A DNA stretch of 18,400 nucleotides from a virus (lineage: Duplodnaviria; Heunggongvirae; Uroviricota; Caudoviricetes), in the IMG/VR virus record IMGVR_UViG_2724679293_000004; one strand, written 5' to 3'. Within the stretch, counting starts at the first letter, position 1; each line of letters opens with the position of its first letter. The position numbers were made by a program. Positions 12,001 to 15,000 of this stretch are shown piece by piece.

Positions 12001-15000
12001 TGGGAACTGTAAAATCATTGGCGTTGTCGTTGATGCCAAGCTAGCAAACCTTCCTTAAGGGGCTTTCGCCCCTTTTTTATTTCCCGTTAAAAATCAAAGA
12101 CAAACTAAATTCGCGCCCATAAAATTAAGTTTTCTTCAAAAATGCACTTAACCAAAAATTAAGAGGTCTTAAATTTAAGCCGTCAGCAGGAGGCTGGAAG
12201 CCAAACGGAACAGATTGGCAGGCTCTTTAACATCGACGAACTCTCAACCTAACCGTTGAGACCAGAACTTGAGTGGTTTTGGGGATGGCGCGAATTGCAG
12301 CTGCAAGACAGCGATCGAGAAGATAAGCACCTCGACGCGTCATGCGCCAAAGCCACTTAAAGGAGACCATCATGGTAACCATTGTCTGGAAAGAATCCAA
12401 AGGTACGGCAAAAAGCCGCTACAAAGCTCGCAGAGCAGAACTTATTGCCGAGCGACGCAGTAATGAAGCACTGGCGCGAAAAATTGCGCTAAAGCTCTCT
12501 GGTTGCGTCAGAGCAGACAAAGCAGCATCACTAGGAAGCCTTTGCTGCAAGAAGAAAGAAGAAGTTGTTCGAAAAAATAGAAGTATTTATTACAAGGATT
12601 CAAACCCATTAGGAAACAAAATACATGCAGTCCAAAAAATAAAATTGTACAGTAAACTACCGTACGGTGCTTATTGAGTATGCTTATGGTGAAAAAGACT
12701 ATTTATGTTAATCCTGACCGCGGACAAAACAGAAAAGTATCTGATAGAGGTCTTACATCTCGAGACAGGAGGAGAATAGCGAGATGGGAAAAGAGGATAG
12801 CATATGCATTAAAAAACGGTGTAACACCTGGATTTAATGCTATAGATGACGGTCCTGAATATAAGATTAATGAAGACCCAATGGACAAAGTTGACAAAGC
12901 ATTAGCAACACCATTTCCTCGCGATGTCGAAAAAATTGAAGATGAAAAATATGAGGATGTAATGCACAGAGTTGTTAATCACGCTCACCAACGAAATCCA
13001 AATAAAAAATGGTCATAGCCCACTTCGGTGGGTTTTTTATTGGCTGAACTAACCTAATTTATTACAGCAAGCTACGCAGTGAAATGGGTGTGACTTGTGT
13101 TGGTCGCCAGAAAATGAAATTAGGCAGCAAACCACTTATTTGAGGTGAGATATGACAAAATCATGGAGCGTACCTTTTCCTGAATCAGAAACTGAACATG
13201 ATGGAATGCCTGTTTTCTGGAGATTCCAGGCGACAGTTGAAGAAGATGGGATAAAAATATTCGCACTTCAATATATAGCTTTTCATCAGACAGAGCATTA
13301 TGCATGGTTGGTTCCTGCGCATTGGATTGTTAATTTTAAACCAGCACCAAATCAGTGGTTACAGGAATGGAAACAAAGGAGAAATAGATATGCAATTAAG
13401 AAAGTAGCAAAAAATGCAGAAAGATCTTTTGCATTCCCAACGAAGAAACTTGCCATTGAGAGTTTATTGCGCCGGAAGAAATACCATTTAATGAGAATCA
13501 AACAAGATTTGGCTGTTGTATCAACTCTTGTTGATGGGATGAAGAATATTGATACATCAACACCAGATATTGAATATAACTTTGGGCACAACCAAGAAAC
13601 AGAAAATTGGGTATTTTATTAGTACGAGTAAGCACTGTGTATTCATTCCAACGAGTGAATACACGGAGCAATGTCGCTCGTAACTAAACAGGAGCCGACT
13701 TGTTCTGATTATTGGAAATCTTCTTTGCCCTCTAATGTGAGGGCGATTTTTTTCTGTGAGGATATGAACAGATGTCAAACATCAAAAAATACATCATTGA
13801 TTACGACTGGAAAACATCAATAGAAATTGAAATCGACCATGACTTAATGACAGAGGAAAAACTTCACCAGATTAATAATTTCTGGTCAGACTCTGAATAC
13901 CGACTCAATAAACACGGCTCTGTATTAAATGCTGTATTAATCATGCTGGCGCAACATGCTCTGCTTATAGCAATTTCAAGCGACTTAAATGCATATGGTG
14001 TTGTGTGTGAGTTCGACTGGAATGATGGAAATGGTCAGGAAGGATGGCCTCCAATGGATGGTAGCGAAGGAATAAGAATTACCGATATCGATACATCAGG
14101 AATATTTGATCCAGATGATATGACTATCAAAGCCGCCTGAGCGCGGCGTTACCGCATACCAATTACGCTTCACTCGAGGCGTTTTTCGTTATGTATAAAT
14201 AAGGAGCACACCATGCAATATGCCATTGCAGGGTGGCCTGTTGCTGGCTGCCCTTCCGAATCTTTACTTGAACGAATTACCCGTAAATTACGTGACGGAT
14301 GGAAACGCCTTATCGACATACTTAATCAGCCAGGAGTCCCGAAAAATGGATCAAACAATTATGGCTATCCAGACTAAATTCACTATCGCCACTTTTATTG
14401 GCGATGAAAAGATGTTTCGTGAGGCCGTCGACGCTTATAAAAAATGGATATTAATACAGAAACTGAGATCAAGCAAAAGCATTCACTACCCCCCTTTCCT
14501 GTTTTCCTAATCAGCCTGGCATTTCGCGGGCGATATTTTCACAGCCATTTTCAGGAGTTCAGCCATGAACGCTTATTACATTCAGGATCGTCTTGAGGCT
14601 CAGAGCTGGGCGCGTCACTACCAGCAGATCGCCCGTGAAGAGAAAGAGGCAGAACTGGCAGACGACATGGAAAAAGGCCTGCCCCAGCACCTGTTTGAAT
14701 CGCTATGCATCGATCATTTGCAACGCCACGGGGCCAGCAAAAAAGCCATTACCCGTGCGTTTGATGACGATGTTGAGTTTCAGGAACGCATGGCAGAACA
14801 CATCCGGTACATGGTTGAAACCATTGCTCACCACCAGGTTGATATTGATTCAGAGGTATAAAACGGATGAGTACAGCACTCGCAACGCTGGCTGGGAAGC
14901 TGGCTGAACGTGTCGGCATGGATTCTGTCGACCCACAGGAACTGATCACCACTCTTCGCCAGACGGCATTTAAAGGTGATGCCAGCGATGCGCAGTTCAT

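Follow-up and report, generated by a model that had tools for sequence, protein, structure and literature searches.

The interval between the genes N and ea10 of the virus record IMGVR_UViG_2724679293_000004 (Caudoviricetes; the window is the whole analysed stretch of 18,400 nucleotides) lies in the leftward early (pL) operon, which runs in the direction of the plus strand of the window. It is very probably a recombinational patchwork of four independent lambdoid modules in this operon. The four parts are the known gene nun, a pseudogene relic of the antiterminator gene N, the known but uncharacterised gene L0079 of phage 933W and the known PreS/tL2a block. The locus is mostly already known, and the residual interest lies in the second open reading frame (ORF2).

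A preliminary description of this DNA had seen a two-gene accessory cassette of no recognisable family at 12680–13753, bracketed by intrinsic terminators. Its outline was borne out. Both ORFs exist on the plus strand (ORF1, 12680–13018; ORF2, 13152–13622), and each is followed by an intrinsic terminator (13017–13040 and 13725–13753; terminator scan and folding). The gene upstream is an N of phi21 type: its arginine-rich motif (ARM) has the same sequence as the phi21 N peptide in PDB 1NYB, and a phi21 boxB is located at 12242–12261. Downstream, the lambda-like genes ea10 (DUF2528), cIII, gam and bet were found. The lack of a recognisable family and the unity of the cassette did not stand. ORF1 matched a Nun-like family, ORF2 matched PHROG 1636, and the two belong to separate mosaic modules with the N relic between them.

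The AT-richness that had been noted for the cassette was real but not specific to it. The GC content was 0.35–0.39 over about 12450–14100 and 0.44–0.54 in the flanks, and the low-GC stretch also takes in the 3' part of N and ea10. The terminator scan found seven terminator-like sites, where 2.0 were expected.

Identification and distribution of nun

ORF1 was identical at 108 of 109 residues (E 2.5e-71; PDB sequences) to HK022 Nun as resolved by cryo-EM within an elongation complex of E. coli (6ALG, chain N). The sole change was S11R. Moreover, ORF1 matched PHROG 5632 ('Nun-like transcription termination factor') over its full length (E 4.5e-71). Residues 22–47 were identical to the Nun ARM peptide of 1HJI (1HJI_B), which was solved with lambda boxB. 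Residues that contact RNA polymerase (RNAP) or are needed for arrest, namely H93, R94, N97, H98, H100, R102, K106, K107 and W108, were all unchanged with respect to 6ALG_N (residue list: PMC5386594). We identify ORF1 as nun, which encodes a transcription arrest/termination factor, the classic lambda-exclusion factor. The ARM of Nun binds the boxB hairpin of lambda nut RNA in competition with lambda N. The C-terminal segment is wedged into the elongation complex, so that translocation is blocked and superinfecting lambda is excluded (PMC5386594).

Pfam, NCBIfam and PADLOC gave no match for ORF1; only PHROGs and the PDB sequences identified nun. The gene was present in 220 of 5,426 complete E. 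coli genomes (about 4%), with an intact ORF in 219. In nearly all E. coli genomes listed, the label given by PGAP was 'hypothetical'. A tblastn search with nun yielded 30 phage records, comprising 29 close copies and one distant homologue from a Hafnia phage. The close copies include HK022, HK75, mEp235, mEpX1, Kapi1, PA28 and a set of Shiga toxin 1a (Stx1a)-converting phages. In several phage records (mEpX1, mEp235 and PA28), Nun is already annotated beside the N gene. The ratio of non-synonymous to synonymous substitution rates (dN/dS) was 0.04–0.16 with respect to the copies of HK022, HK75, an Stx1a phage and PA28, which indicates that nun is under purifying selection.

In PA28 (NC_041935), RefSeq holds only a 45-aa 'Nun-like' fragment (locus 3079–3216), and tblastn found an intact 109-aa nun at 2887–3213. 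The fragment is an annotation error, not a pseudogene.

The distant homologue belongs to Hafnia phage Pocitis76 (OL512804, 3001–3267), where an 88-aa protein, annotated merely as 'transcriptional regulator', directly follows the N gene of the phage. It was 41% identical to Nun and combines a lambda-N-like ARM (MDAQARRREKRKAKQEEWKKQN) with a Nun-type C-terminus (…MYRVVNHAHQRNRHKKW), in which the RNAP-contacting residues of Nun are also kept. The combination points to diversification of Nun-like excluders through exchange of the ARM that targets the RNA.

Mosaic structure of the N–nun region

Module boundaries were drawn from pairwise mapping of the window against related phages. HK022 and HK75, which lack N and have putL instead, have 12560–13028/35 and 13632–13750 in common with the window, but neither the 5' part of N nor ORF2. 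The phages mEpX1 and PDP110P1 share 12180–13112/13154 and 13631–13752 and are without ORF2. Phage 933W shares 13090–14400 and is without nun. In this comparison, which the preliminary description had proposed as a check, nun and ORF2 were present or absent independently of each other.

The N gene of the window is colinear with standard N (Gally, N7 and Sf101) up to about 12563. The last 37 codons (12564–12674) encode a diverged but homologous C-terminus, VVRKNRSIYYKDSNPLGNKIHAVQKIKLYSKLPYGAY compared with the standard VERKQNRIYYRKPRSEMGVTCVGRQKMKLGSKPLI. In the N alignments, which also included mEpX1, this diverged C-terminus always accompanied nun. The standard C-terminus reappears 3' of nun in a segment of 96 nt (13048–13143) that ends in …IYYSKLRSEMGVTCVGRQKMKLGSKPLI and a stop codon. 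This relic was 98.9% identical to the 3' end of Sf101 N, and PGAP labelled it as a pseudogene ('regulator, missing N-terminus'). A 10-bp direct repeat, ATTTATTACA, occurs at 12585–94 and 13057–66, the homologous point in both N copies.

The relic ends with TGA and the ribosome-binding site (RBS) GAGGTGAG (13142–13149), followed after 2 nt by the start codon (ATG) of ORF2. In Sf101, 933W and mEpX1, this stop-RBS-ATG linker stands in front of different genes. As the linker is common to different genes, it marks a conserved mosaic joint, which here forms the translation start region of ORF2. The gene order N–nun was also found in mEp235, Kapi1, mEpX1, PA28, the Stx1a phages and the distant Pocitis76.

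From these comparisons we place the nun module at 12560–13045, inside the 3' end of the phi21-type N gene. The module would bring a diverged copy of the N C-terminal coding sequence, which includes the HK022 nun-promoter region, followed by nun and its own terminator. The simplest history would be a recombination between an N–nun phage and a standard-N phage. The left crossover may have occurred in the middle of N, which is conserved, and the right junction would lie directly behind the nun terminator. What remains of the displaced N 3' end, the 96-nt relic, supplies the RBS of ORF2. The diverged, nun-linked C-terminus could be adapted in such a way that N-modified polymerase coexists with its own Nun.

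A mobile element of homing or site-specific type, which rebuilds the 3' end of the gene it targets, was also considered. It was rejected, as no nuclease or recombinase is present and phage recombination explains the layout.

In HK022 (6055–6184) and HK75 (2501–2620), which have no N, the leader of about 120 bp in front of nun corresponds to an in-frame N 3' end in the window (12560–12688), and weaker similarity extends further into N. Since this nun leader corresponds to an N 3' end, HK022 looks like a descendant of an N–nun phage. This suggests that its nutL and the 5' part of N were replaced by putL.

In 933W, the annotated N stops at the equivalent of window position 13093 (sequence compared: about 2504–2562, equal to window 13093–13151). 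Between this stop and L0079, about 50 nt of an N 3' end of the lambda/21 type are left, together with the shared RBS. The linker of 933W is therefore an N-end relic too.

One novel cassette of two genes for defence or counter-defence, with its own promoter and bracketing terminators and analogous to ral/sieB, would fit the AT-richness of both ORFs, their place in the variable N-to-ea10 slot, the terminator after each ORF and the 137 of 5,426 complete E. coli genomes that hold both. Nevertheless, we find it hardly credible. ORF1 is Nun, an N pseudogene separates the two ORFs, and each ORF occurs without the other: ORF2 alone in 933W, nun alone in mEpX1, PDP110P1, HK022 and HK75. What was taken as the right bracket of the cassette, the second terminator with the hairpin before it, belongs to the pan-lambdoid bsq4/tL2a/PreS block, which is present in lambda too. 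The proposed internal promoter (13091–13120) was not detected by the consensus scan, and its sequence is the conserved 3' coding end of N. PADLOC gave no match.

ORF2, a probable early gene shared with 933W

ORF2 corresponds to L0079 of 933W (NP_049479), and its protein was 100% identical to the 933W and PA28 copies. It matched PHROG 1636 (unknown function) over residues 1–156 (E 2.7e-112). No relative was found in Pfam, NCBIfam or the PDB sequences, and PADLOC gave only a chance-level match to Cas1 (E 0.018). Close homologues were confined to prophages of Enterobacterales. An exhaustive profile search yielded 87 proteins, of which about 70 were distant relatives of 130–155 aa (PHROG 13631), all of them unannotated. 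The family is widespread and restricted to phages. When 79 family members were compared with Pfam, and in a profile search against PDB sequences, only noise was obtained. Searches of the literature for its accession, its locus tag and its PHROG number likewise turned up nothing about ORF2.

With respect to the Pectobacterium and Cronobacter copies, dN was 0.28–0.30 and dS was saturated, which marks ORF2 as a real, constrained gene.

With 20 close homologues, the first AlphaFold2 run reached a pLDDT of 60.5; the model became confident once distant relatives from the profile search were added (79-sequence alignment: pLDDT 95.7, pTM 0.82). It comprises three long beta-strands (19–55), short helices, a short strand (83–86), a 33-residue helix (98–130) and an ordered C-terminal tail. 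Fold searches with this model found no solved counterpart in the PDB. Of the HMM and structure searches that the preliminary description had suggested, a profile search identified ORF1 as Nun, and those for ORF2 gave a family but no PDB fold. In BFVD, the model had 13 matches with E < 1e-3. The named ones were all 'Uncharacterized protein', and the rest were unnamed. They span phages of Erwinia, Achromobacter, Delftia, Rhizobium, Sinorhizobium, Cellulophaga and Tenacibaculum.

The protein is basic (isoelectric point 9.07), with a net charge of +12 over residues 56–130. R24, K83/84, K87, K98, R108 and K109 were conserved across the family, as were an E46-T47 motif and A101.

The placement of the homologues varied. 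In a Cronobacter prophage the homologue lies between N and cIII, and in a Pectobacterium prophage just before xis-int. In three other prophages, among them those of Marinobacterium and Pseudomaricurvus, the relative is found among small early-left genes upstream of the integrase, with recombination genes adjoining it in two of the three. In one metagenomic contig it stands among tail and capsid genes. No constant partner gene was found in the neighbourhoods of the distant relatives.

The consensus scan detected no promoter for ORF2 in the window. Lacking a promoter and placed behind the terminator of nun, ORF2 appears to be an N-dependent early lytic gene, probably transcribed only from pL with N antitermination.

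The preliminary description had favoured an exclusion or defence role for both ORFs. For ORF1 this agrees with lambda exclusion by Nun; for ORF2, defence of the lysogen found no support. Expression in the lysogen as a defence or superinfection-exclusion protein would require that transcription passes the nun terminator or starts at a weak promoter within the N relic. The gene does occupy the sieB/ral slot of lambda, and the motif TGACTT…TGAAAT does exist at 13091–13120. We nevertheless consider such a role unlikely, given that no promoter was detected, that ORF2 stands directly behind a terminator and that PADLOC found no defence family. Its distant relatives, moreover, are located mid-operon among early-left genes, and the phages with structural relatives have a very wide variety of hosts.

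A binder of nucleic acid, or of a host factor associated with nucleic acid, with a role in host takeover or counter-defence, is a tentative proposal for ORF2 that we hold to be possible but doubtful. Similarly speculative is the broader picture of a widespread, phage-only family with a fold absent from the PDB, a conserved basic surface and an undescribed role in early infection, next to an N C-terminus adapted to Nun. ORF2 is carried by a large fraction of the Stx and other lambdoid prophages of E. coli.

The bsq4/PreS/tL2a block

Window positions 13632–13770 were 97.9% identical to lambda 33906–34045, which lies between ral and ea10. The block was found in more than 300 phage records. In Sf6 it is annotated as 'bsq4; boundary sequence' and 'terminator, homology to phage lambda; tL2A'. 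In HK022 it directly follows nun, and an IS903 is inserted into the 14-bp hairpin.

The hairpin previously described near 13637–13664 is real, but its stem has 14 bp and not 9, and it spans 13635–13667 (dG -21.7 kcal/mol, z -6.7). The tL2a terminator (13725–13753) has an 8-bp stem with five GC pairs and a run of seven T.

The lambda locus encodes LPR1/PreS, an Hfq-bound small RNA (sRNA) of ~88 nt that is processed to ~68 nt and whose 3' end is tL2a. It is made mainly in the lytic cycle; it activates translation of the host dnaN, represses alaS and promotes phage DNA replication. A GC-rich terminator hairpin with a poly-U tail is a feature of Hfq-dependent sRNAs (all bioRxiv 10.1101/2024.10.31.621285). 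The window was identical to lambda over 13633–13733 and through the whole sRNA body, and differed by two bases in the region of the terminator loop and by one T fewer. The PreS region folded with the expected terminal hairpin. No Rfam family matched in 13632–13753. We assign 13632–13753 to the pan-lambdoid bsq4 block, consisting of a hairpin and then a putative PreS/LPR1 sRNA that ends in tL2a.

Expression of nun and self-immunity

The 120 bp upstream of nun were 96.6% identical to HK022, which also has an equivalent hairpin after nun. King et al. reportedly located, in 2000, constitutive PNun promoters just upstream of HK022 nun, with transcripts that end downstream of the gene. By analogy, a promoter region within the last codons of N would let Nun be made constitutively in the lysogen. 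This transcript would end at the terminator at 13017–13040 and so not enter ORF2, kil and the other genes beyond it. Once the prophage is induced, N-modified polymerase coming from pL would read through this terminator. Nun would bind lambda-type boxB on the pL and pR transcripts of a superinfecting phage and arrest RNAP just downstream, so that lambda-type phages would be excluded.

The resident prophage would be spared because its own nut site has the phi21 boxB, which is read by its own phi21-type N. No lambda-type boxB was found in the window. In the loci compared, the phi21 boxB was present in seven of seven N+nun loci, lambda boxB was seen only in the nun-less lambda and Sf101, and nun was strictly paired with non-lambda nut or put systems. 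The data are consistent with self-immunity of the prophage to its own Nun.

Alternatively, nun could be a silent passenger of a recombination in N, which is not expressed in the lysogen, is of no use to a phage that depends on N and is maybe mildly harmful to the antitermination of its own phage. No consensus promoter upstream, the PGAP label 'hypothetical' and the 45-aa fragment annotated in PA28 would agree with this. However, the ORF is intact in 219 E. coli genomes and in PA28, its dN/dS is low, and the promoter region is nearly that of HK022. The strict pairing with non-lambda nut or put systems, and the N–nun order kept in a Hafnia phage at 41% identity, also speak against a passenger. 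We therefore regard it as quite improbable and prefer an expressed, functional nun.

Several points weigh against our interpretation. The consensus scan found no sigma-70 promoter with at least 8 of 12 matches in 12520–12700, and expression of nun in the lysogen is read from the identity (96.6%) to HK022 upstream of the gene. Robert et al. are said to have found, in 1987, that phi21 nut sites escape the action of Nun. The 5' end of PreS in the window was set from the size of the lambda sRNA (~88 nt). Finally, the function proposed for ORF2 is a guess from its charge, placement and distribution, with all homologues unannotated.

Coordinates and further features of the window

Table 1. Features of the N-to-ea10 interval and its surroundings (window positions)
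Feature	Position	Strand	Description	Basis
cI	11408–12058		followed by a terminator	
pL region	between cI and nutL			
nutL	12222–12261	+	boxA GCTCTTTAAC (12222–12231); phi21-type boxB hairpin TCTCAACCTAACCGTTGAGA (12242–12261)	sequence match, folding
N antiterminator	12372–12677	+	101 aa	PHROG 271 (E 1e-31); same CDS in PGAP
nun upstream region	12560–12688	+	doubles as 3' coding end of N	96.6% identity to HK022/HK75
ORF1, identified as nun	12680–13018	+	112 aa from ATG at 12680; 109-residue form of the structural work, 12689–13015	
Intrinsic terminator of the nun module	13017–13040	+	stem region 13017–13034, then T-run	terminator scan, fold
N relic	13048–13143	+	last ~31 codons	translation, alignments, PGAP pseudogene
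ORF2	13152–13622	+	156 aa	933W L0079, PHROG 1636
Hairpin at start of bsq4	13635–13667	+	14-bp stem	fold
Putative PreS/LPR1-type sRNA ending in tL2a	13666–13753	+	5' end approximate	lambda identity
tL2a terminator	13725–13753	+	stem 13725–13746, T-run to 13753	scan, fold
ea10 homologue (DUF2528)	13772–14140	+	downstream border of the slot	Pfam PF10800 (E 2.6e-46)
cIII	14213–14377			
gam	14565–14861			
bet	14867–15652			

The lambda cIII thermoregulator RNA element (Rfam RF01804, 88.5 bits) was found at 14200–14258 (+), overlapping the start of cIII. An LpxR-family outer-membrane protein gene (PF09982, E 6.8e-40) is located at 3568–4527 (+), beside a stretch of 27–35% GC and between the antiterminator Q (2403–3176, minus strand) and the nin region. 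This gene is a candidate moron of the lysogenic-conversion type. Immediately downstream of Q, an ORF of 252 aa (1475–2233, minus strand) in DNA of 30–35% GC matched PHROG 1521 (unknown function; E 2e-154) and had no Pfam domain.

Significance

The locus exposes an annotation gap: nun, a textbook phage-exclusion gene, is carried by about 4% of complete E. coli genomes and by Stx1a-converting phages and is mostly labelled 'hypothetical'. It is also a clean example of lambdoid mosaicism, in which a module recombined within N and duplicated the 3' end of that gene, and the relic left behind still gives the next gene its RBS. ORF2 is conserved in 933W-like Stx phages, where it is probably an early gene, and the confident model of its fold has no counterpart in the PDB. 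Of modest evolutionary interest is the position of nun in N, with a private copy of the N C-terminus, together with an HK022 nun leader that resembles an N relic.

Comparison with known systems

The gene nun resembles that of HK022 in 108 of 109 residues, the ARM, the RNAP-binding C-terminus, the ~120 bp upstream and the terminator after the gene. The setting differs: HK022 lacks N and has nun after putL, whereas here nun lies in the 3' end of an intact phi21-type N and is followed by an N relic. The layout of N with nun is not unique, being already annotated in mEpX1, mEp235 and PA28. ORF2 agrees with L0079 of 933W in its position after the N 3' end, its RBS and its entire protein sequence.

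The PreS/tL2a block matches that of lambda in sequence (97.9%) and in its position directly upstream of ea10. It differs in the gene upstream, which is ORF2 here and ral in lambda, in two changes in the loop region and in a T-run that is one base shorter.

The lambda genes ral, orf28 and sieB have the same map position, between N and tL2a, and Nun, like SieB, protects the lysogen from other phages. Neither ORF, however, matched a Ral or SieB family (Pfam, PHROGs), and the mechanism of Nun is boxB-targeted arrest of RNAP.

Morons are promoter-gene-terminator insertions in lambdoid phages and were defined from comparisons of HK97 and HK022. The nun module is similar to a moron in being present or absent among close relatives (933W is without it), in its GC content (0.37–0.39) and in having its own terminator; HK022 nun also has its own constitutive promoter. 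Unlike a moron, the module lies inside a gene and replaces the 3' end of that gene with its own diverged copy.

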